This document shows, in pieces, positions 3,350 to 64,000 of a DNA stretch of 64,000 bases. The stretch comes from Blasia pusilla (lineage: Eukaryota): assembly GCA_050084515.1 (NCBI GenBank), contig CM114271.1, forward strand, positions 20,832,001 through 20,896,000, in the 5' to 3' direction. The position numbers and the translations under genes were made by a program. Each line of letters begins with the position of its first letter. Within the stretch, counting starts at the first letter, position 1. The notes beneath the pieces are model-generated. The model saw nothing but the letters and a program-made list of their open reading frames with translations. It was not told the origin of the DNA and searched no databases.

Positions 3350-3364
3350 CTCACCCCTCTTTTA
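3350..3364 (-). other. Polypurine tract
   Basis: Minus strand reads TAAAAGAGGGGTGAG immediately before the LTR TG; same tract precedes LTR 47227. Confidence 0.85.
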
Positions 3365-8399: not shown

Positions 8400-8534
8400 T
8401 TCCAAGCCAACTCACTCAAATCTCCTCCTCGTTTCTTGCGTCCCTCCTCGAGCGTACGAGTCTAGCCGCTACCTTCAAATTTCCCAAGCGTCCGGCTGAT
8501 CCCACGACCCCAAGTTCTCGCTCACCAAGGATTT

Positions 8535-8546
8535 GCTCTGATACCA
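8535..8546 (-). promoter_or_regulatory. Primer binding site (tRNA-iMet)
   Basis: TGGTATCAGAGC on the minus strand, 2 nt after the LTR CA end. Confidence 0.93.
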
Positions 8547-8548
8547 CT

Positions 8549-16686: not shown

Positions 16687-16712
16687 CATTGAGGCCTAGA
16701 GACTTTACTTTG
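16609..16712. repeat. Perfect 32 bp inverted repeat with 40 bp spacer
   Basis: 16609-16640 is the exact reverse complement of 16681-16712. Confidence 0.95.
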
Positions 16713-17353
16713 ACTCGCATTATATATGAAGGACTAAGCCATTTCCAAATGAAGAGGAAGAGCTAAAGGAGGCTATTTCCTCTACCACTAGTGAGACTCA
16801 CGAAGGGGTGAGTAGGATTGGAGAAATTACATGATCTAGTCGAGTTTATCCTAGGTTGAACCTCGTGATTGAGTTCTTTGTGGAATTGCAAAGGAACTAC
16901 CAAGGGGTGCAGACGAAGAAGTTGTAGAGCATCCATGACTTCCATACGCACGTAGGGAAGAGTTGGCGATAAGCAATTACTTGCTTTCATTGGTTGATTA
17001 ATGTCACTCAAGGGGTGACGGAAGCTTATGCCATTTAAGCATTATATGGGATATCAGAGTGTGAGCTATGGAGACGGATGGGGGATGCGACCCTTTTGTA
17101 TCGCACTGCATCTACATTGAATTGAGAGATATGTTTGAGATGCCTTAGAGCGTTGATTACAACATGGCCAAGGCGAATGTAGCAATTATGAGTTACGCGC
17201 AAGAGATGCCATGAGTGTCTGCACTACTAGTGCATCAATGGGTATCTTGAAAGAGGCACCGCAAGCCTAGGGAGGTTACTAAGAGCATATTCCACATCAA
17301 CTTATGCAATCCTATACAAGTCAACAGCAATCAAAAGTTGCTTATTGGGTATG

Positions 17354-18530
17354 TGATGGAGCCCATCCAAGAGTGTCCCAGTGTGAACATTGTCAACGTT
17401 ATCGTGTAATAATATGATCCAATATGTATATTCCTCTTATCAGTATTAGAGAGAGTTTATAAATATGAAGTAAATTAGCCTAGGAAAAATAATTTTTCAT
17501 GTTTAAACCTCCTTATGGTGCCTCATATAAGGATATTTTGGAGGAAATAACAAATAATCTACTTGTGTCAAAATGGGATTGGCTAAGTCTTAAGATAAAA
17601 CCATGTGGCATAATATAAGATTTTCCCTAGTGTTTAATTTTGTGGATCCTTTGTGAGTATATAAAGAGGAGGGACCTTTAAGGGTTCATCACCTTCAACT
17701 TCATTTCTCAAATTTCTCTTGTCACTCTTGAGTGGATGGCATTGGGCTTGCTTGCTCTTCCAATGAGAGTGGATTTCCCCTCGTGGGAGAGCCACTTGAC
17801 CATGGTATATTCTTTGAGAGTTTTCCAGAGTCTGATGTATGTAAAGATGGTTCTTTAGAGAGACTTGTCATCTTAGGGGAGTTCTTGTCATTTTAGGGAT
17901 ATTGGATGGATTTTGGCTTGTTATTTTTCTCATGAGAGTGGATTACCCTTCTTGGGAGAGCAACTCCATCAAAACCCATTCTTGAGAAGAATAGAGGATG
18001 TCCGTCAATCATAAATAGGGATGGAGCGCGAGTCGTACCCGATTTCCCTTTTCTTAACCCATACCACTTAAAGGTTCTCTTTGTTGATAGGCACTAGTTT
18101 ACTCATTATCTAATCTACCACTTTGGAGAGGCATTCATGAACCAGCTCATGCAATCACCAATTTTGGTGATATTTCCTATTATTACGTACAAAAGGACTT
18201 GGGATTGTACTTTTTATGTCCTTATATAGCGATCTATGGATGTAAATAGTTCTGTTTGAGTTGGATTTAACACCAATTGTGTCATTTTCTTATGTACAAG
18301 CATAAAATAGTTTATCAGGACTTCATAGTTAGGAATTTCGTTGTTAGATGTTATGAAGAAGTTATCGCCTTGGCATTACCATTCATCATTCCTATCGTGA
18401 GAGAATGGAGAGTGTATATAGTGATTCTGTACTAAATAGGAGAACTTATTAGAGAATTCACTTTGCATCAATAATTTTCGCAGCTAGAAGATCCACCCTT
18501 ACTCAAAGCAAAGCTCTCGCCACGACAACA
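17354..18530 (+). mobile_element. Solo LTR (1177 bp) with 5 bp TSD GTATG
   Basis: TG...CA ends; GTATG at 17349-17353 and 18531-18535; TATA-like TATATAAA near 17658; removing it restores the gag zinc-knuckle frame GYDHIRARCFSLH. Confidence 0.85.
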
Positions 18531-19209
18531 GTATGATCATATACGCGCTAGGTGTTTTAGCCTACATCTTAAGCTACTTTCGAATCGAGTGCTAGAGAGG
18601 ATACTAGAGTTCTAGGTGGGGCTAGAGGTCATGCACAAGGTAGTCTCGTAAGAGGATGAGGAGTTAGATATGCCCATGAGGGAGGTAGGTAGGTATGCCC
18701 ATGGAGGAGGTAGAGATCTGCCACTTAGACAAGTCAAGAGGGACTCTAGCTGTGAGGCTAGGATGGTTGCTCAGATAGAGAAGTTGCAAAAATAGATTTT
18801 TTTAAATGGCATTGAGGTAGTCCGATGTTGCATTAGTGGCCTCAACCTCATATAGAGTAGTCATGGATCAAGACGATCTTAATTGGATGTGCGGGGCTAC
18901 ATAGATAGAGGTGGAAATTATTGATATCCGTGGTACAGTCATAGATTTTTTAATCCACATAGAGGGGAAGCCACAAAACAAACCATTCTTCCTCAATCAT
19001 TAACTTTGTTCGAGGAAATGAGACCCATCGATAGGTCGTGATCAGAGTTTTCAGAGGTTGGATTTTGTTGGTGTGCAGGCACGACCGATGATGGGAGAAG
19101 TGAACACGACTACTCTTATTATTGATGCTTGGAAGGAGCTTATGTCAAGTATGTTGTTGGGGACGGCCACTGTCACTAACCATGTGTACCCCATGGTTTA
19201 GTAGGGAAT

Positions 19210-20260
19210 GCTATAATGTTGCCCTTGGACACCACACCAATTGTATGGCGCATACTATAGGGGGTATCAGAGTGTTGGATCCCTTGGAGGGATTAGCACT
19301 TGTTTGGATGCTACATTACACTCAAGAGTGTGTGTTCATTTGTATTTATATGTGGAGTGTGATGATGTTGCAAGGCGCATTTCACTCAGACATTTGGCGC
19401 AGTTATGCCTTCATTTTCCTTATTTGTTACCCATATCAACCGTCTTGGATTGCCAAAATCCCTTATCAAGGGATGTTTCCTTGTTGGAGGTGGAGGACTT
19501 GGATCACAAGGGGACCATTGATTTGGTCATTGACTCATTGTAGGTCAACCATGTCACGGTCAATTGAGTGTTGGATGCGATGGCCATGGTAGTTTAGCTA
19601 ACTCTCAATCCAGGTTATTTTGGGAGATGATGAAGGTCTTGCAATACTTGGAGGAGCAATTCTCTTGATCTCCAACTTACATTCTTGAGAATATACCAAT
19701 CTTGGATGATTCTTGGACACGAGTTATGACAAGTGCACATCAAATTCATGCTTAGATTGCCCCAATAGTGTTTTTGGATGTAGCAAGTGTAGATTCACGA
19801 GCACATCATTCGCGTCTTTGGTGGACCAACTTGGTGCCACACAAGGTTTTGAGAAGGGCATATGCCAAAGTGGATCGTCCCTCCCATTTTTTGGAGGATT
19901 ATATTTTGGATCTGGGACGTTGATCACAAGCAATGAGCCACAATGATCGACCTCCATTGAAAATGGACAACAAGGACAGCATGCCATATGCATCCTTTCC
20001 CACTTTTTTGAGTTTCCCCGTTATTCTATTCTTATAAGGAGGCCGATCGATTCTTGGTTTGGAATGACCAAACACAATGGTTGGTAGAGCCTAACACTAA
20101 TGTGCGAGGGCGTGCAATGAGGTTCTCCGTAAGAGTGACAACAATATGATTACTATCAAAGGGATCTTTATATTATATTTTGGGTCAGGCGATGGACCTA
20201 AATTTCTTGACATGGATTCTCATCCTGAGAGTAGTTAAGCAACGTCGGATGTGTTTGCCA
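19210..20260 (+). pseudogene. C5-cytosine DNA methyltransferase domain within Gypsy pol (decayed)
   Basis: With frameshifts: VLD.GGIST (I), DLVI..GQPCHG (IV), PTYILENIP (VI), LDVASVDSRAHHSRLWWTNL (VIII), EPN..RGRAMRF (IX), ILGQAMD (X). Confidence 0.85.
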
Positions 20261-22533
20261 TATATCACCTTCGTTGCACTTGTTAGCCTCGTGCCTATTG
20301 AGACCATGCAGGTAGTGGCTGGGGGTGAGATTCGAGGAGATAGGCTATGCTAGTCGCTTGAACAACGTAACAAAGGCAAAGTATAGCTCGTATGAGGGTG
20401 GGTGAGTGGCTGCAATATGGATTGTCGTGCATTTTAAGGTGTTAGTGATTTGGAAACCACTTAACCATTATTACTGATCATCAACCACTTAAGTGGTTGA
20501 TAGAGTTTGACAAGCTTACAAATAAGCTTGCTATCTGGGCTCTATTGTTGCAAGAGTATGGAATTGTATGATTTCCCGGTGGTCAAGAGACTTGTGATGA
20601 TCAACCAAGATACGGATGGATTGAGTTGCAACCTATAATCGAGTCAATGAGATGAGACTAGAGCTCGTTGGCATGAAGAGAGTGATGAGGAGATGATGCA
20701 CGGTTGGCATGCGCCAGCCTATTTGGATTTATTGGCCATAGTGTTGGGACTTCAATGACAAGTTCCGATATCGATGGAGAATCCTTAGATCTAGAGGTAG
20801 GTGAGGAAGAAAAAAGTGATTGAGATATCCACGAGGATGGGGTAGCATTGGAGTACTTGCAACCTGGCATCATTGGGAGCACAGCGGGTGCTAGAGAGTA
20901 GGATCAGATTCTACATCAAGGTGGGAGAGGACACATGTCTTATGAGTTTAGGAGGATGATAGAGTACAAATAGTATGTGCCTTATCCTACGCATATATCA
21001 TGATTGGTATAGCATATTCGTGAGGAGTTTGGACACATTGGAGAAAAGTTAATATATTGCTTGCTTCAGATACAATATTGGTGGTGACGCATGGAAACTC
21101 ACGTATAGGAGTTTGTTGCCAGATGGATGGTGTCTAATGGAGTCCGAGCATTCTTCAATAGTCTGACATCATAGTTGCATCCATTACCAATCATGGGCTT
21201 AGGCTATATATGGAGTTTGGATTTTGCAGGGCCTTTACCTTTGACAAAGCGTCATACTCAGTCTATGTTGGTATGGTCGAGTACATCTTGAAATAGATAG
21301 AGTTTGTTGCATTTCTTTGACAAAGTGAGAAAGGGAGTAGTGTACGCATTCCTAGATTGAGTGTTGATTCACGATGGTGCATCACTTAAGGTGTTGATTG
21401 ACCGAAGTACAGATTTTTGTGAGGAGTTTGAGGTCTTGTGTGATCATGCACCGATCGACCACCACACTACTTCTTGAGATTATCCTACGATGGATGGATA
21501 AGGGGGCAAAGTTGTTCAAACGACAAAGGAGGGTTAGTGCAAGTATAGCTTATAGAGAGATCACCTAGGAGATTGGGACTCATAGTTCGCAATGGGATAT
21601 AGATTCAATAGCCATACATCATTAGTATCCTTCTCGCCTTATTTGTTGCTTTATAGCCGAGAGATTGATTCACCTATGGGCATTTGTCATGATATTGGTG
21701 AGGTGTTGAACCTTGATGATCCTAACGTAAGGATGAGAGCATATTCTCAAAGGGTTGAGTTATTTCCGAAAGTTTTGCCCATGGCGTTTGAGAACTTATC
21801 TATTGCATGACAATCGGATATGTTGAAATATGCAACTATTGGAGGAGATGGTTATCAATCAATAATCTAGAGGTTTCATCAGAAAGATTATGTCTACTTG
21901 GAGCATACAGTACTTATGACGTTGGATATAACAACAAAGCGCACCATCTTGAAAATGCATGAGTTGTTGCCATCCGATATTCTCTTATTGGAGGGACATG
22001 ATGGTATGGTTTGGAAAGACCACATGCAAAATTGCACGTCATGTCACCTTCCTAAAATTGATAATATAGTTGGTCGAAGTTTAGCAATAGTTCTTGCAGG
22101 CTTGTATTTTATGTTGTGTGGATTTTCCCGCAATTTAGCTTCTATGTTAGGATCAAAGGACATCCTCGGTCAAGGGTGGCCTATTAAAGTCCTTGATAAT
22201 CTAAGAGAGCATGTTTCCCCCTTTTTGGATAATTTGGAGTTATATTAAGGAATTTACTATTTCGTAGAAGTTACTATTATGAGCATGGTTGAATTTCCAT
22301 TTTGGGAAGTGGCCTTGACCCCCTATAAGCACAAATTACTGTGGGGAGAGCTTAGGAGAGTAAAGGGTTATACCCAAAGAGAGGGAGCTTTGGAGCTCAT
22401 TCTTTCTTTATTAAACTTGTTGGCTTGAGGGAAAAAAACTATGGTGCTCCTTGCTTTATGAGTATCCAATCCTCTTATTAGTAGAGAGGATTTGGTTTGA
22501 CATGAGAGAGAGATGTGGAGATTATGTGCACCA

Positions 22534-45315: not shown

Positions 45316-48229
45316 TCAAGCGGTTCTTTTGGCCCAACATGAAAGAGGATGTTGCTCAATATGTGAAGACTGTGTGACCCGCCCTTAGCTTAATAGAGTC
45401 TCTTATGATAAGAAACAGGGCTTTGCATCCCTTGCCGATCCTGAAGGACCCTTGCAAAGTGTGAGTATGGATTTCATCACGAGTCTTCCGGAATCTGAGG
45501 GATACAACACTATACTTGTGATTGTTGATCGGTTTAGCAAGTTGGCGAGATTCGTGCCGACGGTGGATTCCTGAACGGCGATAATGACGGCGCAACTATT
45601 CCTCGATAGTGGTGGCGTGCTCATGGTTTGCCGAGGAGCATTGTTTCAGATCGGTATCCAAAGTTTACCAAAGTGCTTTTGGAAGCACTTGTTCGAAGGT
45701 TTAAGACCAAGCTGAGTTTCAAGATGACTTTCCACCCACGCACGGATGGGAGATCGAAAAGGTAAACTCTATCGTGAATCAAGATTTAAGGAATTATGTC
45801 GGTCTTGATCAACGTGATTGGGTCAAGTGGTCGAGCATGGCGGAATATCTGCTACAACTCGACCAAGCATTCGCGAATCGAGAATCTCCGTTTCTCTGGC
45901 AAATGGACGAGCCGAATGGCCTCTTGATCTAGCCCTTTCGAAGGGTACTACATTGGCACGAACACTAAAAGCGACGGCGAAGGTTTGTTGGAAGAGATGC
46001 GAGAACAAGAAGAGAGCGCGAGGCTAAGTCTTGCAAAGGCTCAAATGAGGAACGTTAAGCATGCTAACAAAAGTCGGGCGCCAAGTACGATTCCAAGTTG
46101 GAGAACAAGTGTGGTTGAGTGTAAAGAACCTCACTCTTCCGAAAGAGTTGTTCATGGTATGCCCGCCAAGTATCTTTGGACCGTATGTGATTGTGGCAAA
46201 CCCGTTTGAGGATGTGTATACGTTGAGGCTACGGACGAGTTCAAGATTCACCCGACCTTTCATGTGTCATTGTTGAAGAAATATCTTCAAGATAATGGAC
46301 GCGTTTCGTCATGGAGACAGTGGTGAGACCGCACCCGGTCATCGTAAATGAAGAACCGGAGTTTGAGGTGGAGACCATCTTACGTTCGAGGCGTCGGGCC
46401 AACAAGTATGAATACTTGGTAAAATGGAAGGGCTACCATGTGAAGGAGGCGACTTGGATTGCGGAGGAGGATTTGGAACACGCGCAAGACTTGTTGCGTG
46501 ACTTCAAGCGAACACAAGCGAAGCACATACGTTAGTAAGAGGAGAAGCTAGAGACATGACTTGTAACCAGTGGAATCTTGGGCCGAAGGCCGTTGTAACT
46601 AGAATATGCTAGTGTTGCAATAAAGGAGTGTATGGATTTGGAGATTCGATGCCAGAGAGGTTGCAATTTGTATGTTGTAGTGCATGGCTATGAGTCGTTC
46701 ATCATAGGCTTAGGATGTACGTCAAGAGGATTGACAAGGAGTATTTGAGGTGAGAGCTCGTATGTGGATAAGCATCTAGAACAAGATCTTGTGTTGGATT
46801 ACACTCGGGCTCGCCCTAGCGTCGGCGGGGCAGATGAAGTCTGTCTTGGGGCTTGGGGTGATCTTACTTGTGGCCACATAAGTAAACTTAGTGAGGCGCC
46901 TAAGTCGAATACGAGAGCGACCCAATAGTAGTACGATTTGTGGACCAGGTAAACAGGTGTGATGTTTACAGTAATGAGTCAAAAAGAGTCTAAGGTTGCA
47001 CACTTAGTTAGCTTATTTGATAGGTTAGTTCCTTGGAACTAGTCCAGGCTTATCAAAGAGGAGAGGCTAATAATTCTAAGTGGGGCAAAGCGACAACTAG
47101 AGACTAAGAGGAATTGCGGGTTAGCCACCAGAACGCAATTCAATGTCAAGGGGTAGGCTGCCCAAGAGACTTGACATAATAAAGGTTTGCGTTGATGAGA
47201 GCATCAACCTCTAAAAGAGGGGTGAGTGTCGCGACCCTCATGACCAAACAAGTGCCAAGCGGAACATCAGAACATTAGCGGGCTCACGCTAAGATGGTTT
47301 GCGCGTTGGAGTTGTCTCAAAGAGGAGACAAGAGACGAGACGCGAGCGAGGAGTCGCGTTTCAGGTGTTATGGTCGCGACTGAGAAACCTGGACCAAACG
47401 CGGAATGAGATTTGAAAGAAGTCGAGTCTAGGAAGTGGGTTGCCAAAGGAAAGATCCGGATTTGCAACGCCACTAGCGTTTGAGAGTTTCTGACTGTATT
47501 TATGGCCATAACTTTTAGCTCCAAGATGCGTTTGGAGCAAATAAGGATGCGTTGGAAAGCTTATGGAGAGCCGGTCCAAACGCATTAAAAATCGCTGCAA
47601 ACGCATAAGCAGAGGCCGAGATACAACCCGAAAACGATTGTAAGTGGAGTCGGGTTGAGGGCCACAATGAAGGGCCCGACCCTCTTTTCCCAAAGGGGAG
47701 GGGTTATTGGAGAACCCCAGAAGTACTAGTAAGGGGGAAGGTCTCCGAGAGTGCTTGGAACCCAAACCCCACTTTGGGCGCCACGGGGCGGCTCAAGGGC
47801 GTGGAACGGAACGCGAGTTTGGGGGATTGGGTTGGAAAACCTGCACCAAGTCCATTGAGGCAATTTCAGACATCCCTCTTGGATACCACCCCGCGACTCA
47901 ATTACTTGGGTCTCGGTTCGGAACTCACCCGAGGACCATTGAACAGTTGGGATCACTAGGCGCGCAAGTGCCGTTTCAGATCCCTTGACTAACCAGAAGT
48001 CTGTTCCAAGTCTTGAAGGACTTGCCATGTTTTGGAAGCTAGGAACTAAGGAAGGTTGAGCTTGAGGAGACGCCGAGTTGAGGACTCGGTGGGTTGGAAC
48101 GCCGGTTGGCCCAAACCCGACTAACGAGAGTGCGTGTTTGGGTGCAGATCGGCGATGAGTTCGTGACCTACTGAACGCACGCTTCCGCAACACTAGAGAT
48201 TGACGTTCAAGGAGAGTAGGGGCGCGACA
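45316..48229 (+). mobile_element. Chromovirus copy 3, 5'-truncated (INT, chromodomain, 3' UTR, PPT, 3' LTR)
   Basis: Reverse-complement homologue of 2357-5110; chromodomain ORF at 46311-46535; PPT at 47212-47226. Confidence 0.94.
47227..48229 (+). repeat. 3' LTR of chromovirus copy 3 (~1003 bp)
   Basis: TGTCGCG...CGCGACA termini; same family as LTRs at 2357 and 8549 but visibly more diverged. Confidence 0.94.
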
Positions 48230-50950
48230 GTAAGCTTGCAGGAACTACTGCTAAGCTCGGATCAAATGTACCATCAATATTAGGAAGGTGACATGGCGCA
48301 CAGTTACGCATATGGTCCTTCCAAAGCATACCATCGCGTCCCTCCAATAAGAGAACACCATATGGCAAAATCACACGCACTCTCAAGATGGTACACCTTG
48401 GAGTCACATCCAACGTCGTGGGTGTAGTCTGCTGCAAGTAGACATAGTCTCCCTGATGAAACCTCCGGATAGCTGATCGATAACCACCTCCCCGAATAGT
48501 CGCATACCTCAACGTATTCCGATGCTGTGCAATCGCCAAGTTCTCAAACGCCATGGGCATCACTCTCCTCGAAATAACTCAACCCGTTGAGAACATGCTC
48601 GCATCCATACATCAAGGTCATCAAGGTTCAACATCTCACCAACATCTCGACAAATGGCCATAGGTAGATCTGGTTCTTGGCCATAAAGTAGCAAGTACAA
48701 TGAGAAAGACGCTAAGGATGATTGCCTCTTGAATCTGTAACCCATCGCCAACCACGGCAACAAGAGGTCCCAATCTCTTAGGTGACCTCTCTCCAAGCCA
48801 TACTTGCGTAGTCCTCTCTTTATGGTTTGCACAACCCGCTCCGCTAGTCCATCTGCCTCAGGATGATCTCGCGAAGTATTGTGATGGTTGATCAGTGCCT
48901 GATCACACAAGGCCTGAAACTCCCTGCCAAACTCTGTACCCTGGTCTATCAACACCTCAACTGGTATTCAGTAATGACTCAAGACTCGATCTAGGAAGGC
49001 ATACACTACTCCCTCACTCGCTTTGTCAGGCAATGCAACCAACTCTATCCACTTCGAGAAGTGCTCGACCATCGCCAACACATAACGACTATGGCGCTCC
49101 ATCAAAGGTAAAGGTCTTGCAAAATCCAAACTCCATCTACAACCTAAACCCAAGATCGGAAGTGGATGCAATTGTGGAGTCGGAGCATTGAACGATGCTT
49201 CGACCCGATCACAAACCATGCACCTAGCAAAACATTTTTGAACGTCAATCTGTATGCCTCGCCACCAATATTGTATTTGGAGCAAGCTATATGTCCGCTT
49301 TACTCCAAATTACCCTACTCCTTGTGAGTATGACGCACCAAACGTGCTCTCTGTGAAGGATGAGCCACTACACGTACTCTACCATCCTCCCACACGTGCA
49401 ACACATGTGTCCCCTCCCACCGGAACCGTTTGGCTTGATGTAGGATCCGATGCCACTCTCTAGCACCCACTATGCTTGCGACGCTACCAGTACGCAGGTA
49501 CTCCAAGTCCACTCCATCATCATGAATATCTAGGACACATGTCGTATCCTCACCGGCCTCTGGATCTAAGGACTCTCCATTAGACTAGGCCATCAAAGTC
49601 TCAAAAATCAGGCTCCCTATAGCCAACAAGCCCAAATAGGCTGACGCGTGCCATCCTGGCATCAACTCCTCATCACTCTCTCCATGCCAATGAGCTCCAG
49701 TTGCATCTCGTTGACTTGCGCATGGGTTACGACTCAAACTATGTGCATCTTGGTTTAGCGTCTCAAGTCTATGCATCACCTGGAAGTCATACTCCTGCAA
49801 GAAAAGAGCCCACCTTGCAAGCTTCCATGTAAGCTAGTCGGACTCCATCAACCACTTAAGTAGCCGATGATCAGTAATGATGGTAAAGGGGTTGCCAAAT
49901 AAATAGCACCTAAAATGTGCGACAATCCACATTCTAGCCAAGCACTCACCCTCATACGAGCTATACTTCGCCTCTGCAGCGTTGTTTGAGTGACTAGTGT
50001 AATCCACCATAAACTCTCTACCATCATCGTCACGCTTGGTGAGCACAACTCCAAACCCCAACATACTCCAATCTGTATGCAACTGGAAAGGACGCCCCTT
50101 GATCGGTCTCCTCAATATGGGCACGGATGTCAATCGGTCCTTGAGCAGCTGAAATGTTGTCTCCTGCTCATCCTCCCAATGCCACTCCTCATCCATCTTG
50201 GTCATCAAGGTCAACGGCTTTGCAATCGAATTGAAACCCTTGAGGTACTGCCAATAGAAGTTCGCCAATCCCATGAATGCACAAACTTGACTCACATTGT
50301 AGGGCGTGGAATGTGTGAAATAGCTTCTACCTTTGTCTGCTGCACACGAAGGCTCCTTGGGTATATCGTAACACCCAAGTAATCAATCTGGTCATAGAAG
50401 AACTTGCACTTGCGTGGATGTAGCTTCAACCATGTAACTGCAATCATCAAAATATCTCCTCCAGATGTTGCTCATGCTCCTCAAACGTGATGCTGAAGAC
50501 TATGATATCACCAATATAACACCTAGAAAAATCCAGACTTGCCAAGATCCTATCCATGAACCTTTGAAAATCAATCGGGGCGTTCTTTAACCCAAATGGT
50601 AAGAACCGCCACTAGTACAAGCAATCCTTCCCGTGAGGATCAATGCCCCAAAATGCCATCTTCCGCCTGTCCTCCAATCTGATAGGCAGCCGATGGTATC
50701 CAGCTCAAAGATCTAACGAATTGAAGACCTTTGCATGCCCAATAGCATCAAAGATCTCCTCACGGGTGGGCATGGCATACCTATCACACTTTTTCTGCCC
50801 ATTGATAGGTCAATAATCTCCACACATCCGCCTATTCATCCAATTTCCATGCACATCCTTCTTGGCGGGCATGATTGTGGCAGATGGATACTCTTCATGC
50901 AACATTTCCACTAGTCTTGCTCCAACCAAATCTTGGCTAGCTCCTTCTCT
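48230..50950 (-). pseudogene. RT-RNase H-integrase of Gypsy copy B
   Basis: RRMCGDY, PFGLKNAP, YIGDIIVFS (YIDD decayed), LHTDWS, YSSYEGECLA, WSLDFARPLP, DQGTEF, DGLAERVVQ. Confidence 0.93.
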
Positions 50951-51509
50951 GAATCAGAGCCCTCTCCATGTCAATGTACTTGTAGGGTCGTTAGAAGATT
51001 GGCGTGTCGCTCAACAACTCAATGCGGATCTTTGGACCCTTCAGCATAACCAAATTATGCATGCTAAATGCAAAACTACTCCTGTAACTCCTAAGGAATT
51101 GATGTATCCGGCGCCGCTCTGCTCTTGTCAACTTAGGGCCCATATTTGGCTCCCAAGTCTCCATTGTGACTACGGTAGGACTCTATGGTGCAGGTGTCAA
51201 TGGTTGCTATGGTGCAACCCCGTCTCGAACAACAAACTCGACAGCTCTCCTGCAGCCAAGTGTAAAATCGGATCTCCTCCACGTGCAGTACTTGGAACCA
51301 TGCTCGATGCTATAGCTAGCATCTCCTGGCGTACCTACAAAACATCCCAAAAAGTCCAAGGGTGTCTCTCTCGATCATCCATGATGTGTCGATCCCCTCG
51401 AATCTCGCCCCCAACAACTATCTCAATTGGCTTGGTAGGCATGGGGCTCACCAACATAACAGTTGTGATCTGTCGCATCCGCAAATGACGTTGCTCAACT
51501 ACTCCTAAC

Positions 51510-52430
51510 CTAAAAATCCATGTCAAGCAGTTCAGGTCCATTGCCTGACCCAAGACATGACGTCGCGATGCCTCTGATAGTGACAGTATTTCGGTCTGGC
51601 TCATCGGCGCTGGGATCCACCAACTACTGTGCTTGGTCATCCTAAACCAAGCCAGACCCAACCTCCTTGAATGCATAGGAAGAAACAAAACTCACAAAAG
51701 TGGGAAAGGCTGCCCGTGGCATGCCAATCCTGTTGACCATAGTCAATGGCGGTCGATCATTGTGCCTCATTGCCTATGATCAATGACGTGGATCCATAAT
51801 AGAATCCACCAACAAATGGGAGGGGCGCTCCACTCTCACATACGCCCTCCGCAAAACCTCATGTGGCATTAAGTTGGTCCACCAAAGATGCGCGCGATGT
51901 GCTCGTGAACCTACACTCGCCGCATCCAACAACACTATCAGGCCGATCCATGCGCGCACCAGGTGTGCACTCGTCACCACGTGGGACCTTGAATTGCCCA
52001 AAATCGGCATATTCTCTAGAATGTATGTTGGAGAACGAGACTAATGGTCCTATAAGTGTCGCAAGATCCACATCATCTCCCAAAACAACCTAGATCGAGA
52101 GTCAGCTGACCCGCTACCTCGTCCAGCACTCGATTGGCGTTGACACAACCAACGTGCAATGAACCAAATCTATGGTCCCTACCCGCTCCAAGTCCTGCAC
52201 CCCCAACAATGAAATGTCCCTCGGTAGGGAACTCAGGTATTCGTAGACGGCGGACGTTGACAACAAGTTGGGAAATCGGAGGCGTAATTGCGCCGCATGG
52301 TGAAGTGAAGCGCGCCTCGCAACACCATCAACCTCCACGTATAGGTACTACTACACGCGCACTCTTGCCTGCTAAACAGTAGCTAGACCTGTGCTGATCC
52401 CCCCCAAAGAGATCCAACACGCAAATACCC
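51510..52430 (-). pseudogene. C5-cytosine DNA methyltransferase domain within Gypsy pol (decayed)
   Basis: VLDLFGG (I), YVEVD (II), DLV/IARWLCQ (IV, frameshifted), PTYILENMP (VI), LLDAASVGSRAHRAHLWWTNL (VIII), SEASRRHVLGQAMD (X). Confidence 0.9.
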
Positions 52431-52565
52431 TCCTCTGGGATGTACCACACAATCAGAATGGTGTCCAAAGGGGTCATAGTAGCACTCTTGGCTACCTCGG
52501 GTTCCTTTGAACCGTCACGCTCCGGTGCAAATATCTCGCTCCATGCGGTCTGCACATGCTTAGCG

Positions 52566-55500
52566 TGTCATGACCATACGGATTATATCGTAGAGTATAG
52601 TGTGCTAGTAGAGGCCATACCTTATGTAGGGCCGTAGTGTCTAGGTAGAGATGCGGTTTCATACATAGGGTTGGGGGTTACTCAGTTAAGGGTGACTTTT
52701 CCAGTAGGGCCCGCTCTTAGGTTGGAGGATATAGTCTAGAGTGCACTCAAAGAACAGTTAGTTCTTTGAGTTGAGCCTGTTGCGTTGGGAGTTAGCCTTG
52801 ATAGTGAGTAGAGCTCTTGGCTATGGTGGTTCCCGCAAGCTTCGATTTGGATTCTCCCATCATGGAGTGGGTTTGGCTCGATTGTATGTGATTCTATACG
52901 TGTTTTATGATAGAAGGTCTTTCACGGATTTCACTCAAAGAACTAGAGTAGATCGATGGTAGCTTCGATTGTGGATCATTAGGATCTGGTTAGGGTTTAT
53001 TGTGTACTCAGCCGTGGATGTTCGTGGCTTGTGGCCTATGTTGGAATGGGAATCTGGTATGCGGTTGGTTGGGAAAGAAGCGCCTTGCTGAGAGCTTTCC
53101 AATCTGGCGATCTTTAGATCGCCGGATTTCGTCAAGGGAGTTGGAAGTTATCAAGGATTGAAGATTCTGGTTCAAGGCAACGAAGCAACTCGTGAGAGGC
53201 GGAGTAAGGAGCAAGGAGCAAGCAAGCAAGCTTGCTTGCTTGGACCTGAGGCAGTTTTTGCAGGATTTGTGAGTTGAGTGTTGCATAACTTGTCACCCAT
53301 CTTTGGGCTATTATGCCTGGAAGACGCTTAACTTCTGAGTTCTTAACTATGCTAGTGTACATACTAGTATGGCTCATTTGGTGCTGTTTGGAGATGTGTT
53401 AAGTGCTTTATGCATCTCGTGTTTTCAGTTGATGGACCTATAGCGCATAGTACAATGTAGCCTCTCCATGCAGGTGATATTTTCAGGTGATGCGAGTGCG
53501 ACTAGCACGTCATCGACCAGCGGCGGAGTAGTTATTACGTTAGAATTGTATGGTGGGTTTTGTGGATTCAAGGGGCGCCACTTTTGGTGGATTGTGTTAC
53601 CTTGATTTCCATTTGCGACTGGAGGGTTGTCGTTGGACTTCTTGTGTTTGGATCCCCTCCTTCGTTGCTTCTTGCCTGCGCGCCCATTGTTAGGGTTGAC
53701 GCTGATTTCCAGAGTAGTGTTACTCATGTGTGCTACCGGTAGTGAGGCTGGAGTGATGAACGGTAGACCGTGGGAGGCTTATTGTGGTGATGACAGGTTA
53801 CGTTGCCTACACCCATAGCTAGTAGAGCTAGAATAGTACAGTGACATTGACGTCACTTGGTTACTTAGTGGTGGTAATTTGGTGGTGGTGCAGCATCGAT
53901 GTTGGTCATCACGGAGCTGTCTGGTGGTCAAGTTGGGGACCGTGGTGTGGACAGTGGTGGTTTTACATAGAGTGGATTGAGGTATCGGTTACCTTTTCCA
54001 CTTCCGACGGTTGATGAAGAGGAGGACGAGGGTGTTCCAAACAATGAGTCTACTACGTTGTTATCGAGTGTTGCAGCTCCATTGATTTGGGACATGGATG
54101 GGATATATGGGGCCATGAAGTGCCCACGACAATACTCGGGTGGAGTGGGCACCATTGAGTTGGAGGACTTCATGCAAGAGTTTGATACGTGGTATGATAT
54201 GCAGATGTTGCGGAACGCCACGTTGTTTACACCCTTCTTGGCTTGGAAGGGGTTGTTTCAGCACTTGGAAGGACCACCCATGGATGATTATCATGAGTTT
54301 AGGAAGGACCATGTCACTGAGATTGAGGCGTGGAGACAATATTGGTCCCCAGGCTATGTGTCTATCACCCATGGTGGTATTGGTAGTAGTGCTCCTACTA
54401 TGCCAGCTAGCCCGACGTTGAGTGGTACGAGTACGAGCCGGAGTGGGGGTACCAATGGAGGTACCCATGGAGGTACCAGTGGGGGTACTAGTGGAGGTAC
54501 TAGTGCCCCACCATCGTTCAGCCCGGTTGCAGAGTTCTTCAAGAGGTTGAAGAAGAACTATCAGGGAGTGAAGACAGAGAAGTTGAGGAGTCTTCAGGAA
54601 TTTGAGTGAAAGACTGGTGAGAGTCTTTGTGAGGCATACACTCGTATGCAACGCTTGATTTCGATTACCAGGTGTGACCGAGGCTCAGCGATCTAGTTTT
54701 GGTATGGGATCTTGGACAGAGAGTTGCGCCGCAGGGTACGTGATGCTACTCTTATGAGTGATGATTCACCCACATTGACCCATGTGTTTGCTCTATCTGA
54801 TAAGATTGAGCTTAACATGGTGAAGGAGAGAGTGGTGACGTCTGCATTGAGTAGGGATACAACTACTACTTCTCGTGTTCAGCAGCCCACCTTATAGTCC
54901 CGTAGTAGTGGTGGTGGTTGTAGTAGTGGGAGTCGTGGGGGGTACATACGACCTCAGTCAGGTCCTAGATGGACACTTGCGTAGATACCATTGCCTTCAT
55001 TTGCTGCCCCGCAGCAAGGACAGTCATGTTGGACATGTGGAGGTGATCATGTTAGGAGGTTTTGTCCCCAAGAGGATGGGAGAGGGACTTTGGAGGATGG
55101 GCCTCATTCGGCCCCAACTCAGTGTGATCATTGCGGGAGACTAGGCCATCCATTGCTTTGATCTTCATCCAGAGTTGAGATCAGGCGGCGTCCGTGGTGG
55201 AGTAGCTCCGAGAGGCTGAGGTGGTAGAGGTGGTAGGGGTGGTAGAGGTGGACCAGTAGTTGGAGAGCCTACCGTGGCTACCCCTACCACTACGACAGAG
55301 TCAGCTATGGCTGCCAGGATTGAGCAGTTGGAGCATAAGTTGGCTACTATGGCTAGTATCCAGCATAGATCAGGTTCGGGAGCAGGGGCTTCCACCTCTT
55401 ATGGAGGAGATGATCTCTCTTATATGGCGAGTGCAGCATAGGTTGAGGCATCAGCTGCAGTTACGAGAGGAGCCACTCGAGCGTCAGAGCCACGTGGTGC

Positions 55501-56258
55501 TACTGTGGAGTTGGATCCACAAAGGGATGAGGCTGGGAGGCAAGCTAGGCTTCCCCAGTCATTCTTGTTGTCTGAGGTGCTTAGGAATCCATCCATGGTT
55601 CCTACGCATCCTATTGAGCCGACAGTGGGGACTAAGGCATCTACATCGCGTGTAGTAGACACGGATGCAATATCCAGTGCAGTATTTCGGATGGCAACTT
55701 CAGTGTTGGGATCCCCATTGTTTTCGGCCAGGGAGCTAATGGCTTAAGGAGTTGAGTTAGCTCCTGTATTTTAACTAGCATCCACGTTGTGTGAACGTGG
55801 GGGTGTTACTGCTACACGTGCTGAGGTGGATGAGGGTGTTGCGGTGGAACGACCCTCTATGTCAGGTGTAGCATTGAGTACCAGTGCTACTTGGCAGGCA
55901 ACAGCGGCGAAGATGGATGCATTACCAGCCCGGCCACCCATTGATCGTGAGAGGCTTACACATGGTGTATGTATGTTGGACAACCGGAGTGGGATATTCC
56001 GATTGGTGAGTCCTATAGGACAGGTGTATAGACCAGATAAAGTCTTGTTAGACTCTGGTGCCCAACCTTTGATGTTGGGAAATGCGGCATGTATTGGTTT
56101 GGGTATTCGGAGGTCAGAGCTTGAGCCTTGCCCATTCCTGATTCAAACATCAGTTGTGGTACACTTGTATTTTTGGATGCTCTCGTCTATATTATGTATG
56201 TATGTGAGTATGGTATGTCAACGATGTATGTTGTATGACGATGTGGATTTGCACGACA
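52566..56258 (+). mobile_element. Nested, internally deleted Gypsy element (gag and PR only) of the same clade as B and C, with 4 bp TSD AGCG
   Basis: TGTCATG...CACGACA ends; AGCG at 52562-52565 and 56259-56262; excision restores host frame EEF*RLAAKHVQTAW; gag 53977-55750; PR VLLDSGAQPLMLG at ~56040. Confidence 0.85.
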
Positions 56259-59200
56259 AGCGGCTAAGCGTCAAAACTCCTCAGTCGAGCCCCAAAGCGG
56301 CATCTCTCCTCCACGGAATGATGTGGTTATCATGATACTCCTCTCCATAGAAATGTCAGGAATGGGAGTGTTTTCTGCATGGACACGTCCGTCAATAAGA
56401 TCAATAGGCCAAGTGATGGCGGTGCAAAATATTTCTAAGGTCGCCATCTCTCCTAGCCGTTGCTCGATCACTCCACCGATGAATCGAATGGATAACGAGC
56501 TAAGTCGTCCATCGTCGGATTGCCATCCGGGGTCTGTAGGACGCTAAATCCTGTCAATAATCCAAGGAAATATTGGGTACAATATTTCTCCACCAACCAA
56601 GACGTCGTAGGACTCTGCATCGGTCATTATCGCCTTGGCTCGCATCACAGACTCATCTGTAGGATGTCCCGGGTGAATCCTCACCAGGACCTCCTGTCGG
56701 GAGATAAATTGTTCTCGCTTTATCCAAGGATTTTTGTATTCTGAATGGACAACGCTCCACATCGGCTCTCATCAAGCCCAATCCTCTGAATGTTGCTTTC
56801 CCCAACATGAGAGGTTGCGCTCTTGAATCCAATAGGACACGATGCGGTTTAAAAACTCTACCTCCTAGATTCACCAACTGGAAGACCTCTCCTCACTTAT
56901 CCAGCAATACAACACCAGGAGAAGCCGTGGCAATGTCTATCGCGGGTCTAACGGGCATCTCCTCCATCCTAGCAGCCGCAACCTGCCATGAATCTGACGT
57001 GGACGGCCCGAGCATCCGCTCCAAGGGCAGGTCCATCACCTCCTCTCCAATCACCTCTGAACGTGATGCAGGAATACCAACTCCACTCTTACATAGCGTA
57101 ACGTCCGGCCGGAAAACCTCGACGGGCGTACCTTCCAACGTTATAACATCAAAAGCAGAAAATAAAATAAAGGACCGTGGTACACAACAATGACCGCCCC
57201 CAACAACGTGCTCGACACATGCTCCTCCTGAACATCAGCAATAGGAGTAGTCACACTTGCTTCTCCCATCGCTCTCCGTGCTTGCACACCAACAACATCA
57301 CCAACTCTCTGGGAACTCTGATCAAGACCCATTGATGGGATCCTCATTGCCTTGGACAACGTGAAAGACTAAGGAAGCATGGTCTGTTTCCTGGCTTCCC
57401 CTCGCTGTGGATCCAACTTTGTGGCTGCTCCACGCATAACAACTGTGGTGGCCTCCATCTGGGCAACCTCATACACCCAACTAGGATCATCTATATCTCT
57501 GCCTGCTCCATATGACGTCGATGCCACTGATCCGGCATCGGGTAGCCTAAATGCCATAGCGGCAATCTGCTGCTGTATTTGAGCCGCCATCCCAGCCTCA
57601 CACCCGACATCTCCCTTAACGCGTCTAGGTTTTGAAACTCTACCTCCTCGATGAGCAACTCCACCATCCCCCCTGGGCGACTCTAGCTCCTCATCCACCA
57701 ATGGGACCACATGGTGCACAACCTCTAGGCCCACCCGAACCAGCAACTTGTTGTGGTGCCCTCTCTGGCCCTCGTTCTGGACGTAACTCAGGGTGTCGGC
57801 TGAAACAATTGGTGCGTGTGTGACTGTACCTCTGATAATAGTCACAATGATATCCTTCTGCTGTAGCACCATCTCCTCGTCCATGCTGAGGTACGCGTCC
57901 ATGACATTGACGAGTGCAATCGCCCTAGTGATGGGCTCCATCACATGCCGAACAAATAATTGCACGCGGCTGCTGCAGAGCCGCATATGAAGGCGCGGGT
58001 CTCTGTGGTACGGCCTCCTGGCATCCTCCCTGAGCTCGTGGTGCCACTGTCAACCTATCTCGGAATCCACGTTGCTACACTGGTGGTGCACACAATCGTG
58101 ACTGCTCTCGCCCAGAACCCATGGTGGCTACACTCTCCTTTGCCATGTTGCGCTCAATGTTCTCGGAGGTCCTAAGAACATCTCTCAACGTAGCGGAGGT
58201 GTTCATAAGAAGCATCCCCTCCCGCACCCGTGTCCGCATGGTTCGGTCCAACATTGCGTACCATGACTGGATATCTTGAGCCTCTGTCACCTTCTGAGTG
58301 ATGTTAATCAAGCGGCGCAAGCGAGTGTAAGCCTCACGTAAACTCTTACCCGGGCGCCTCTGGAAGTCGTGGATGCTCCGGAACTTCTCAATCCGTATCC
58401 CTTGGTACCTCGTCCTCAACTCTGCAAAGAACTCAACCACGGGGTTGAACCTGGGAGGAACCGGACTGGATGATGCAATTGCTCCAGTGCGGGTTACCCC
58501 TCCAAACACATCACAGGTGGAAGAAGCCTCTCCTAACTCCTCCTCCTCATCTTGGAATAGCTCTGTCCATGACACATAGTTTGGGTCATAGTAGAGTCTC
58601 CATGCCTCAATCTCATGGGCATATCTCTGGGAGAACTCATGGTAATTGCCTCATGGGAATCCCAAAAGGATGCCGTGATGACCCTCGTGCCCCTCTCATA
58701 TGATCACTCTCAACCTTGCGAGTAATCGCTCAATCACTCAAACTAACCATGTGGCACTCAATCTACACTCTCTCACTAAGACGTGTGTTGTTCAGCAACA
58801 AGCGGCGTGGTGCGGAAAATTGACTATTGTCCTATCATCTCATCAACATAACATATCGTCAACTCTAGTTATCCCACAAGGGTCTAGGTCCCCTAAACCC
58901 ATACATCAATGGTGCTCTCAGCATCCGCACGAAACCCAATATCCCAAATAACTACCCAATACCCAGAAATCGCTAACACGTGCAGGGAAAAAGACCAGAA
59001 TGGGTAACATGACAATAATGTCGATGTCACTCCTCAGCAACTGCAAATCTTAACCCCAACTCGGTCGCGAAGACAAACTCCACCAAATAGCACGTCATAC
59101 TCCCCCGGTATTGACGATGCTCAAATATCCTCGATGCGCGGTGCGGGTCCAGCGACATGGTGCAGCACTAGCAGCACAGAATAGCTACAAACGGCACGAC

Positions 59201-61039
59201 ACGGCACTTAGCGGCATACCCTCCTCAATCAACAAAACACAATCTGCTCCATAGTGATAGTGCGGCTCGACAATCGAGACGGTGCGGTGCGGCCATGAGC
59301 GGCATGACGCAAAAATCAACGGCGTGTTGCGGCTACGGCCGTCACGACATGGTACTTGATCGTCATTGAGTGGCTACCAATCACAATGTAGCAAAGCGGA
59401 AACGAAATGCCTATCCCATGACTCCAAAAAGGTCACCGTCCATTCAATGGTGAAGAACACCCTCGACAATGGCCAACAGACAGAGCAAGGACGGCCCGCA
59501 TTGACGGTGAAAGTCAATTGTAATTACAATATCTTTCATGTGGATAAAAATCATTCTATTTTGACCTTATTGAAAAAGTCAAAGCTTTTGTTTTTTTTTC
59601 ACTCCACTAACTCCTTAAACTAAGGGTCAACTCACTAAAATTACTCACATTTGGCTTATACTCCACTAAGCCCCATAAATATTGGGTCAACACCCACTAA
59701 ATAAAGTTTCCACTCACTTAAACCTCAAGATCTTAAATTTCTTGTATCCATACACCAATAATAAAAGATCTTTTTAATTTTTCTACCTCAACTAAGAAGT
59801 TACCAAGAATTTAGAAATTTGCTCCTTCCTAACGCGGTGGCTATGGCAACTTCACAAAAATGATCTTAACTTCTTGCTCACATGTTCAAATTGTGCATTG
59901 TTTCTTCCACACATGCATAACTTCTTGATCTACAACAATATTATATTGGTTTCTTCATTTGATCTTCCCATAAAAATAGACGGGGACTATCATGCAGCTA
60001 TTCAATCTGCACTCCTAAAGAAAATTTGGCAGCGCTTCCGTGTTGCTTTTTCCCAAAAGAAATTGAAAACTTGTAAACACAACAATCAGCAAGCTACAAG
60101 GTACTCCCGAGAGCACCAGCATGGGACAACTTGCCCCCATACTAAATTTCTAACCAAATTTTGGTAGCACTTCCGTGTGCCACTCTCCTACACAAAAAAT
60201 CAAACAACAAAACAACAAATGGAGCGGCTCTTGCTCCCGTGAGCACTCCCATGAGCCGCTGAACGGGGAACACGGTCCCCAACCTGCACCAACAAGGAGT
60301 GATCAGCGAGCTCCTGTATTCAAGGTCTCTCACTCTCTCATTCTCTCTTTGTAAATCAATGAAATCTCACATCAATATCTTACACCAAACTCTCCATGGT
60401 GTGCACACTCTCTCATATCAAACCAAACCCACTCTCCTAATGAGAGGCTTGGGTTACACACACAAGGCAAGTAAGATGATTGCTCTGCTGCCTCATGCCA
60501 AGAGGTTCAACAAAGAGAGAAATGAGCTCTCAAGCCCTCTCTCTCTCTTGGAGGTATACCCCCTTCCCTCTCCCAAGCTCTCTCCTCGATAACCTATGCT
60601 CGTAGGTCACCTCCTTGGCCCTTGGCCTGCTGTAGCGGATCAAGGGCAACTTCCCAAAGTGGAAAGTCAAATATAGTCCAAATGAAAACTTAGCGGAAAT
60701 AGTAAGTTTCTCTATATGGCTCAGAATGAGCCGAAACAAAGGGGAAACGTGCTCTCTCAGGTTACCCGTGGTCTCAGCAAGTCATCCGCGACCTCCTGAG
60801 GTTGCCCTCTAGTATCTCTGAAGGCTCTCTACTAGATCTCGCCAATCTCTTCTAAAAGACGTGATAACTACCATATACAGATCCATGATATGACCATTTT
60901 CTCGTGCAAATTGGATCAAGAAGAGTGGGGGGAGGGGGGGTCACACAAAATATATGCCTTCCCTAGAACAACCATTACACACAAATATGATGGCTGCATC
61001 CTTTGCAAATCCACACAACATATATATATGTCAAGCCCG

Positions 61040-61217
61040 TAGTTACCATTGCCTCATAATCCCTTTCATAAATGATCGCGTACCTCAATGTATCCTTATG
61101 TTGAGCAATAGTTAAGTTCTCAAATGCCATAAGTATATCTCTATGAAAAATCTCTATCCTCTGAGAAAATGCTTCTACCCACACATCTAGGTCATCAAGA
61201 TCCAACACCTTTGCCAT
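61040..61217 (-). pseudogene. Integrase C-terminal fragment of the B/C Gypsy clade
   Basis: VLDLDDLDVW...MAFENLTIAQHKDTLRYA matches 48500-48640. Confidence 0.8.
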
Positions 61218-61840: not shown

Positions 61841-61882
61841 CTCTGCGGAGCATCGGCACCATCTAGTAGCTATAGATATTAT

Positions 61883-62634
61883 CATATTTCTTTTCAATAT
61901 AGTTTGCTCTGTCTAATTACGTTTACCTAGAGTTATGGTCCAGCAGTTGCAAGTATTTCTTCTTCGTTTTTTATCATGCTGGATTAAGTCTAAGGCATAT
62001 ACATATTTCTACTTTAGACTATACATCCACACTCAACTTAGATGCCTTTTTCTACTTATTGCAATTGAGCTTTACTTCATTCGCATTGTGTTATGGTTCT
62101 CTATAATAGTTTCATTTTTCATTTTACTAAGTTTCTGGAATTTTTATATTATTATTTCTTTCCAAATTGTGTGCACATTCAACTATCAACTATGCACCTA
62201 CATAATTCCATTTTTGTGAGATTTCCACGTTTTATTTTCCATTCCATTTTATTTCAATTCCGTTTTGCTTTCAATTTATAGTCTCTTCATGTTGTTCTTC
62301 AATTCAGCACATTCAATTCTCTTTACTACTAACGAATATGTTTGTTTCTATTATTTCAAGAGATCAAATTTATAATCACGCCGACCAACACACCATGGTC
62401 CATTTCATCAAGTTGAATTTAGCACATCTCATAGGCGTTTCACTCACCACATTGATGTTGAGGTATCATTAGAAGATCACCTTCAATCGTCATTAGCAAC
62501 TCTACTAGATCCCTACAAGGATTTTGTTCTTGATCTAGATACGGTTGGACTGTAGAAGAAATAGTTGCAACTGCTGGACCATAATTCTAGATAAACGTAA
62601 TTAGACACAGCAAACTATATTGAAAAGAAATATG
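61883..62634. repeat. 81 bp inverted repeat pair with ~590 bp AT-rich spacer
   Basis: 61883-61963 is the reverse complement of 62554-62634 with 4 mismatches. Confidence 0.9.
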
Positions 62635-64000
62635 CTAGATCTAGATACTGCTGTACTGTAGAAGTGGCATCTTTCTTTTATTGAGTGATAATGCCTTTTC
62701 TTATTGCTGCAGTGTGAACGGGTTCTTCCACCCTCTCATTATATCTGCCACCATAAAAATCTCAAAATTCTCCAATCTATCAATTACACCTACGCCACAA
62801 ACCAAAAAGCTCACATCAAACCATTCTACATACGACCAAGATGTCTTCTAAAAACTACTATGTTACAAACTACTTAGGGCGCATACTTATTACTCTTAAA
62901 TGACACAAACGTCAACAATAGGAAGATTTTAAAAGAACAAGTGTCAACAATAAAAAATAATTTTTAAAAAAACCCAGGTTTTTCTAACCCTCTTCTCTTT
63001 TAATTACATAGATTTTGATAATTTTGTCTAATAATAACATATGTAATATCACAATTGCCCAAATTTATAATAGCACCTAGAACCCCTTTAGGACGGAATG
63101 AACTCTAACTATGCTACGCTGTCGAGTTCGATGACTAAACATGTCACGAGGGACCCAAACAACCGTGTCTCGATCTTCAATTCTACTGAATTCTCGTCAA
63201 TAAATTTCCATATTTTTTATCGAAAACTTTGGAATTTTCTGCAAAGGCCAACTTTTTTTTTGCAGAAAATTGGAACAAAATCCGTATCTGCCTCGAAAAC
63301 ATTCGTAACTATTCCGCTCTTATACGAAAACCTTTTTCACGCGGAAACCTTTCGCGGATTTCGAAACCGGCCTCCGCCTTGTTCACAGCTGCTGCACCTG
63401 TTTCGACCCTCCTTTCATTTCACATTAAGAAAATCGCCCAAAATCCCAAATCTCTCCAGAAGCTTCACCACCCGCGAGCTCGTTACGGAAAGTGGGGGGA
63501 CGGACGTTGCCGCATCCTCATCCTCGAGATCACGCATGACGACGGACACTTGTTGCGTTCGTACGTTCGATTTGAATTGGGGGGGGGAGGGGTTTGACCG
63601 TGGCTTCAGAATTGAGACGGATCATCGTGAGCGAGTTCCCGAGCGGAGTGAAAGGAATGAACGAATGAATCTTGAGGATCGAGGACGCCGGGAAGGCCGC
63701 GAACTCCCGGGAACAAGAGCTCGTGGGTGAGAAGTGGGATGATTCTTTCTTCGTAGGGGCTCCGCCAGCGGTGTCCGTCGATCGCCATGCGCCGTCGTAG
63801 CCAACGTAGCGCGATTGGCGGATGAGATGCAAATTCCGACGTCTTTCGCGCGAACCGATGTTGATTGCTAGCGATATCACTCTTGGCCGAGTCGCTCAAC
63901 AACTACTGTTCCAACCCCGAAACCGAAGAAGGAACGACCGAAGAAACCACGGAAACGAAAACTAACCATCTCCTCTTTTGCCGTTTCCTGTTTCTCGGCC

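Follow-up and report, generated by a model that had tools for sequence, protein, structure and literature searches.

How does a segment resembling a C5 cytosine DNA methyltransferase (DNMT) come to lie between the protease (PR) and reverse transcriptase (RT) of a retrotransposon in Blasia pusilla, and does it belong to that element or to the host? The locus is part of a stretch of 64,000 nucleotides (assembly GCA_050084515.1, contig CM114271.1, positions 20,832,001 to 20,896,000 of the forward strand), called the window below, the first letter of which is position 1 in all coordinates. By its order of PR, RT and RNase H (RH), together with its integrase (INT), the focal element is predicted to be of the Ty3/gypsy type. 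Our analysis makes it very probable that its family encodes one polyprotein comprising gag, PR, a linker, a DNMT3-type DNMT, RT, RH and INT and that the segment in question is this module in a dead copy.

An initial reading made from the letters of the DNA alone (hereafter the sequence-only reading) had claimed that the C5-methyltransferase motifs stand in canonical order on the pol strand, and a three-frame translation of 52650-51250 bore this out: motifs I, II, IV, VI, VIII, IX and X follow one another unrearranged on the minus strand. It had placed them at 51510-52430, where the domain does lie; these limits were slightly too narrow, the whole domain extending over 52567-51341. The domain and its motifs in the focal copy are as follows.

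51341 to 52567, minus strand: DNMT3-type C5 cytosine methyltransferase domain, motifs I to X, degenerate (tblastn, translation, profile)
52420-52400, minus strand: motif I, VLDLFGG, with GGISTGL continuing in another frame
52347-52327, minus strand: motif II, YLYVEVD
within 52157-52134, minus strand: motif IV, LCQ (family form, PCQ)
within 52028-52005, minus strand: motif VI, ENM (family form, ENV)
51932-51870, minus strand: motif VIII, ..SRAHRAHLWWTNL
51710-51591, minus strand: motif IX region
within 51577-51512, minus strand: motif X, RRHVLGQAMDLNCLTWIF

With nine in-frame stops and three frameshifts (near 52400-52404, 52160 and 51590-51578) in this domain, the copy is dead, as had been supposed. 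We used as a query a piece of 130 residues of the focal DNMT in a single frame, with X at three stops (P0001). It recovered 20 proteins at E values from 5.6e-44 to 3.9e-17 (nine from Marchantia polymorpha, three from Calypogeia fissa, two from Sphagnum, and six unnamed ENA/JGI entries; 14 of the 20 carry a PF00145 annotation), and therefore the match is genuine and the focal copy belongs, in decayed form, to a family with many members. Residues 806-1213 of one Marchantia protein (P0010) are colinear with the focal domain in tblastn (grouped E = 2e-82), the alignment extending over 52561-51341 on the minus strand. Pfam searches with eight separate focal open reading frame (ORF) fragments returned nothing in the DNMT pieces, and a phmmer search of the Protein Data Bank with P0001 gave no match.

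The type of enzyme could be determined from intact relatives, five of five of which score above the curated cut-off of 22 bits for PF00145 (35-51 bits). For one of them consisting of the DNMT only (P0003; 368 amino acids [aa]), the best solved relative by sequence is DNMT3A (6.1e-12), followed by DNMT3B and DNMT3C; it matches tobacco DRM at 1.2e-08 over motifs I-V only and bacterial M.HaeIII at 3.5e-04. An AlphaFold model of P0003 built from a 17-sequence alignment has a mean predicted local distance difference test value of 86.1 and a predicted template modeling (TM) score of 0.87. In Foldseek, its top matches are all catalytic domains of DNMT3A/B/C (best E = 5.8e-19; TM score per target, 0.80-0.85), which supplies the structural match that had been proposed as a check. 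No variation occurs among 17 divergent domains in the motif IV Cys-Gln, the motif VI Glu, or the motif VIII Arg and Asn. The modeled domain has a real DNMT3-like fold, and its catalytic residues are conserved across the family. The domain is of the DNMT3 type and not of the DRM type, because its motif order is unrearranged and DRM structures align with it over motifs I-V only; hence, of the two types named together at the outset, DNMT3 is the one that applies. The catalytic fold and motifs are common to the element domain, cellular DNMT3A/B/C and plant DRM, and its motif VIII (AHR..W.N) is likewise that of DNMT3A/B/C, whereas the motif rearrangement that defines DRM does not occur in it. It differs from the cellular DNMT3 and DRM enzymes in having neither PWWP, ADD nor introns and in lying inside a retrotransposon polyprotein; scans of bryophyte-clade proteins found no PWWP or ADD targeting domain.

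Is this domain, then, a module of the element, or a fragment of a host DNMT3 gene stranded amid transposon pieces or transduced by one copy? The latter might be suggested by the dense nest of transposons at the locus and by the interruption of the focal copy exactly at the PR/DNMT boundary. The parts around the domain are as follows.

57330 to 58668, minus strand: gag of the focal element (tblastn, P0010 residues 58-497)
56854 to 57165, minus strand: protease region (tblastn, ORF listing; active-site DSR versus DSG in relatives)
56259 to 56720, minus strand: PR-DNMT linker (tblastn, P0010 residues 647-798; the alignment reaches 56274)
50429 to 51176, minus strand: reverse transcriptase (tblastn, P0006 residues 689-897)
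49396 to 50429, minus strand: RNase H region (tblastn and Pfam)
48232 to 49309, minus strand: integrase, ending at the long terminal repeat (LTR) of a chromovirus (Pfam, self-blastn)
52566 to 56258, plus strand: nested element of a sister subfamily, internally deleted (tblastn, read joints)
52562 to 52565 (left) and 56259-56262 (right), no strand: target-site duplication AGCG, 4 bp (sequence read directly)
16688 to 22103, plus strand: second family copy with gag, DNMT, RH and INT (self-blastn, tblastn)

The ORF at 49834-50382 matches the Pfam profiles RT_RNaseH_2 (5.2e-28) and RT_RNaseH (9.5e-25), and the focal integrase matches Integrase_H2C2 (4.7e-08) and, below its cut-off, rve (7.7e-05). 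With two Marchantia gene models as tblastn queries, P0010 (gag-PR-DNMT) and P0006 (PR-DNMT-RT-RH), the focal PR, DNMT, RT and RH proved colinear with both. The same order occurs elsewhere inside single uninterrupted ORFs, which we count as already refuting an origin from a host fragment: in P0040, P0246 and P0257, environmental polyproteins of 2188-2358 aa without any interruption, a zinc knuckle or PR is followed by DNMT, RT, RH and INT. The gag-PR-DNMT-RT-RH-INT order advanced by the sequence-only reading is thus matched by these three polyproteins and by P0006 and P0010. Further, colinearity holds in all nine environmental loci whose order was examined, for as many of gag, PR, DNMT, RT and RH as each retains, and also in the second copy in the window, with a nucleotide identity to the focal copy of 66-74% in self-blastn. 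The DNMT of copy 2 runs from 19206 to about 20341-20377 and contains five stops, so that the domain is present in both informative window copies. Copy 2 has lost PR and RT by internal deletions and has kept gag, DNMT, RH and INT. Finally, what interrupts the focal copy at the PR/DNMT boundary is a cleanly nested insertion, flanked by a duplication of 4 bp. The inserted element begins with TG and ends with CA, and when it is removed along with one AGCG copy, the PR-side and DNMT-side frames are in register, as had been claimed from the letters, and the residue count equals that of relatives. We consequently give the host-fragment explanation next to no chance; the sequence comparisons show that the DNMT belongs to the element itself and is not the chance cargo of a single copy.

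The distribution of the domain was surveyed by a profile search of 1.84 billion representative proteins, which yielded 4253 matches at E values up to 1e-3 and 369 at E values up to 1e-30. Among 284 proteins with the domain, 150 have the order RH-DNMT-INT, 52 have PR-DNMT-RT, and 82 are DNMT-only fragments. The named members of the RH-DNMT-INT group are chlorophytes (entries from Scenedesmus, Haematococcus, Monoraphidium, Chlamydomonas eustigma and Cymbomonas), and its other members come from environmental sequence; among its polyproteins are P0036, P0099, P0205, P0209, P0244 and P0283. These chlorophyte Gypsy polyproteins have a homologous DNMT (profile E down to 1e-151) and the same Gypsy core, but their DNMT follows RNase H, before the integrase, rather than preceding RT, and most bear a C-terminal PHD finger. 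Trees of the DNMT domain, which were built without cellular DNMT3 genes, separate the two architectures (FastTree, 143 rows, support 99), and in IQ-TREE, a branch with a Shimodaira-Hasegawa-like approximate likelihood ratio test (SH-aLRT) value of 99 sets the 29 sampled RH-DNMT-INT rows apart from all others. The latter tree pairs the two window copies as sisters (SH-aLRT 95) and places them in a clade of 15 rows (support 100), the other members of which come from Marchantia, Calypogeia and Sphagnum or are unnamed sequences. All of the named members of this clade are liverworts or Sphagnum, in keeping with the land-plant LTR clade that had been surmised, and this shows that the DNMT-bearing family lives in bryophyte genomes.

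What kind of ends does the family have? No LTRs emerged from an ungapped repeat search of 44-64 kb, nor did self-blastn at higher sensitivity detect terminal repeats of the focal copy or copy 2. The relatives have a repeat A at both ends and a split repeat B, not simple LTRs. Pairs of A and/or B were found in 5 of 14 loci searched: in L040 and L056, two A repeats of ~330 bp stand 8.5-8.7 kb apart and two B repeats of ~117 bp flank the 3' A; in L036 and L074, two B repeats are separated by roughly the length of A; and L006 has an A pair. Among DNA reads of the window organism, ~420 carry a joint of the B end to the A start and ~380 a joint of the A end to the B start. These data show that relatives have split direct repeats arranged A-coding-B-A-B, like the Gypsy-DNMT3 elements of Klebsormidium. 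The nested element has an A and a B repeat as well, its parts being as follows.

52566-52930, plus strand: repeat A, followed by a leader
54094-56155, plus strand: gag-PR
56150-56258, plus strand: repeat B

Its ends at 52566 and 56258 are fixed by whole-genome read joints and loose ends, and it is 60% identical in protein sequence to P0010 (tblastn). It is internally deleted, because ~690 reads run beyond 56156 into the normal linker, where the window sequence jumps to the terminal B repeat. With repeat A, leader, gag-PR, a deletion and repeat B, it resembles a nonautonomous derivative with proper ends.

The charophyte Klebsormidium nitens harbors the nearest published system, KnitGypsy-Dnmt3, for which the accessible text of de Mendoza 2018 (PMC5890265) describes A-coding-B-A-B repeats. 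According to that text, it also has in common with the present family the Gypsy-type domains and integrase, an unrearranged, intronless DNMT3-type domain inside Pol, purifying selection on the DNMT, and streptophyte hosts. The two differ in that our named hosts are land plants (liverworts and Sphagnum), whereas Klebsormidium is a charophyte alga, and in the selection ratio, which is published there as Ka/Ks <0.2, compared to 0.4-0.6 here as measured on dead copies. No Klebsormidium-named protein was recovered in two profile searches for long relatives (88 and 59 matches, each drawn from the best 8000 candidates by shared words), which is weak evidence. Of all the observations, the A-coding-B-A-B arrangement points most strongly to a possible single lineage for the family in bryophytes and the elements of Klebsormidium. 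By the same source, SymbioDIRS-Dnmt3 of Symbiodinium likewise combines a DNMT3-type domain inside Pol with A-coding-B-A-B repeats; it differs in having a tyrosine recombinase instead of a DDE integrase, in its DIRS class and in its dinoflagellate host.

Between the focal copy and copy 2, the DNMT has a nonsynonymous substitution rate (dN) of 0.34, a synonymous rate (dS) of 0.79 and a dN/dS of 0.43 over 343 codons, with nonsynonymous changes per site the fewer (Fisher P = 9.3e-10); the corresponding dN/dS values are 0.46 for gag and 0.38 for RH-INT. The dN/dS comparison that had been suggested for the domain thus came out in its favor. Among environmental copies, the dN/dS of the DNMT alone falls from 0.64 to 0.52 as dS rises (300 nonindependent pairs, 25 loci). 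These ratios are pushed toward 1 because all of the copies compared are dead. The comparisons show that purifying selection acted on the DNMT, about as it did on the remaining domains.

The manner in which the copies have died is informative as well. The 80 environmental loci (L001-L080), the contigs of which are probably from moss or liverwort DNA in environmental samples, mostly have stop codons without frameshifts, and 25 of them align gaplessly over 365 codons. At least 54 of the 85 stops in these 25 copies are single C-to-T or G-to-A changes. Moreover, the element copies have a CpG observed/expected ratio of 0.5-0.7, in contrast to 0.92-0.95 in young chromovirus sequence of the window. 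The stop spectrum and the CpG depletion fit the decay of methylated DNA. Both window copies have a TGA at one invariant arginine codon (51782-51780 and 19921-19923). We considered that this common stop might reflect descent of the two from an already dead ancestor and rejected this, as the codon is CGA in 16, CAA in 4 and TGA in 5 of 25 environmental copies; with a CGA codon subject to recurrent CpG decay, parallel decay explains the stop and shared ancestry does not.

Expression was gauged from three RNA runs of the same species label, with the strand inferred from the usual library design. Over the families of the focal and nested elements, the RNA reads lie mostly in one orientation per family and nearly all are 90-99% alike; 1, 4 and 7 reads in the three runs reach 99% identity, and the depth over the DNMT region is low (0.2-8.5). 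Thus, relatives are transcribed, not demonstrably the focal copy itself. In the nested element, RNA read starts cluster at 52727, inside A. The transcripts seem to end inside the 3' A repeat, because B-to-A joints are common in RNA (82, 115 and 81 reads in the three runs) and A-to-B joints are rare (0, 0 and 3).

What might the enzyme do for the element? We infer that the polyprotein would be translated and then processed by the protease, so that the DNMT would travel with RT and integrase. It may then methylate cytosines in freshly synthesized element DNA or in the DNA of the insertion site, and a new element copy would carry host-like methylation from the start. This proposal of self-methylation is modeled on a published idea for the DIRS-borne DNMT3, and, per the accessible text of PMC5890265, de novo CG methylation has been demonstrated for no retrotransposon DNMT other than SymbioDIRS-Dnmt3, whose domains methylated CG in yeast. 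The enzyme could instead act mainly on host chromatin, marking target sites or blunting host silencing in trans. Indeed, the families are high-copy in the host (family whole-genome shotgun depth of ~40-1200, versus ~6 for reads at 99% identity or better), and action in cis and in trans is equally compatible with the data. Such a role sits less well with the lack of a PWWP or ADD targeting domain in the bryophyte-clade proteins scanned and with the CpG depletion of the element copies, which fits their methylation by whatever enzyme; we regard it as unlikely.

Another alternative to self-methylation would be a module retained without any DNA methylation, which acts on RNA, as does DNMT2, or serves as a noncatalytic binding or regulatory subunit, like DNMT3L. 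In the accessible text of PMC5890265, the DNMT of KnitGypsy-Dnmt3 gave no DNA methylation in yeast, a result its authors consider inconclusive, and RNA methylation is raised by them for DNMTs borne by long interspersed nuclear elements. In addition, constraint on the DNMT is weaker than that on RT-RH in environmental copies, with median dN/dS values of 0.58 and 0.41, respectively (589 nonindependent pairs, 36 loci; the RT-RH query was locus derived). Against this are the invariance of the Cys-Gln, the ENV Glu, and the motif VIII Arg and Asn in the 17 divergent members, a fold and sequence nearest to catalytic DNMT3A/B/C and not to DNMT3L or DNMT2, and the de novo CG methylation by the SymbioDIRS-Dnmt3 domains. 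On balance, a nonmethylating role strikes us as distinctly improbable.

The yeast result and the weaker constraint also count against our main reading, in which the DNMT is a module of the family and is proposed to methylate element DNA, and the same is true of the following points. Compared with its family, the focal copy no longer has the Pro of PCQ, and an otherwise invariant Arg of motif VIII is missing from it. In the DNA_methylase (PF00145) search that the sequence-only reading had envisaged, P0001 aligns at the correct profile positions with 17.3 bits (E = 0.0033), under the cut-off that the intact relatives surpass. Every copy read as DNA, that is, both window copies and the 80 environmental loci, is degenerate, all 80 of the latter having stops in the DNMT, with a longest stop-free stretch of 451 aa. 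Nine of the 14 loci searched have no A or B repeats, and the likeness to KnitGypsy-Dnmt3 was judged from its published description. It is only tentatively, and with considerable doubt, that we propose the whole of the following: that the window copies represent the land-plant branch of an old streptophyte lineage of split-repeat Gypsy elements, that the working DNMT3-type enzyme of this lineage predates the colonization of land, that it is still transcribed in bryophytes and that it methylates new DNA of the element itself.

DNA methylation is the main means of transposon silencing in plants, and because of this a transposon with its own methyltransferase reverses the usual roles. DNMT-bearing retrotransposons have been described, in the accessible text of PMC5890265, from dinoflagellates and one charophyte alga. 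According to the available part of a 2019 paper (PMC6338049), land plants "such as tracheophytes" have no methylase-encoding transposons, and the available part of a 2026 preprint, which cites the 2018 paper, still names Symbiodiniaceae and "streptophytes (Gypsy-DNMT3)" only. Our literature search for DNMT-bearing retrotransposons in bryophytes or other land plants found no report, with subscription journals and supplements lying outside its scope (the trees of PMC12344493 and PMC5890265 might include bryophyte copies). The family proteins are already in public databases as hypothetical proteins, and some "DNA methyltransferase" gene models in bryophyte annotations are really transposon fragments. 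Since many gene models of Marchantia polymorpha, a genetic model, belong to the family, the role of the enzyme for the element is open to experiment. Were the proposed old streptophyte lineage with a working enzyme to hold true, it would overturn the published absence of methylase-encoding transposons from land plants and make the role of transposon-borne methyltransferases testable in Marchantia.

The remaining features of the window concern the fate of the family copies and their surroundings. The focal copy is now inactive, being broken, split by the nested sister element and cut by a chromovirus, which is unrelated to it.

45318 to 48229, plus strand: chromovirus fragment with integrase, chromodomain and LTR (Pfam Chromo, 2.5e-16)

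The end of the chromovirus LTR cuts the focal element at 48232. Reads extending beyond the LTR end at 48229 enter what is presumably a primer-binding site of the tRNA-Met type. The fragment is 94% identical in self-blastn to chromovirus copies at 1-9542, which lie head to tail with a period of ~6.2 kb. The sequences at 1-9542 and 45318-48229 are young, the copies being ~94% alike and having the CpG ratio of 0.92-0.95 given above.

On the minus strand at 60408-61210 lies a fragment of another family copy, the integrase end of which (61210-61076) matches 48636-48500 and the 3' region of which (60764-60408) matches copy 2 at 22197-22510. Because it lies upstream of the focal gag by about the combined length of an A repeat and the leader, its position suggests that it forms a head-to-tail pair with the focal element. 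Directly upstream of the copy 2 gag, the expected place of the 5' repeat and leader is occupied by a satellite (13908-16355) of seven copies of a 350-bp unit with 87% matches, for which we found no similarity to other 5' regions of the family. Lastly, two 84-nucleotide inverted repeats (61880-61963 and 62554-62637), 94% complementary and 590 nucleotides apart, possibly delimit a small DNA transposon.
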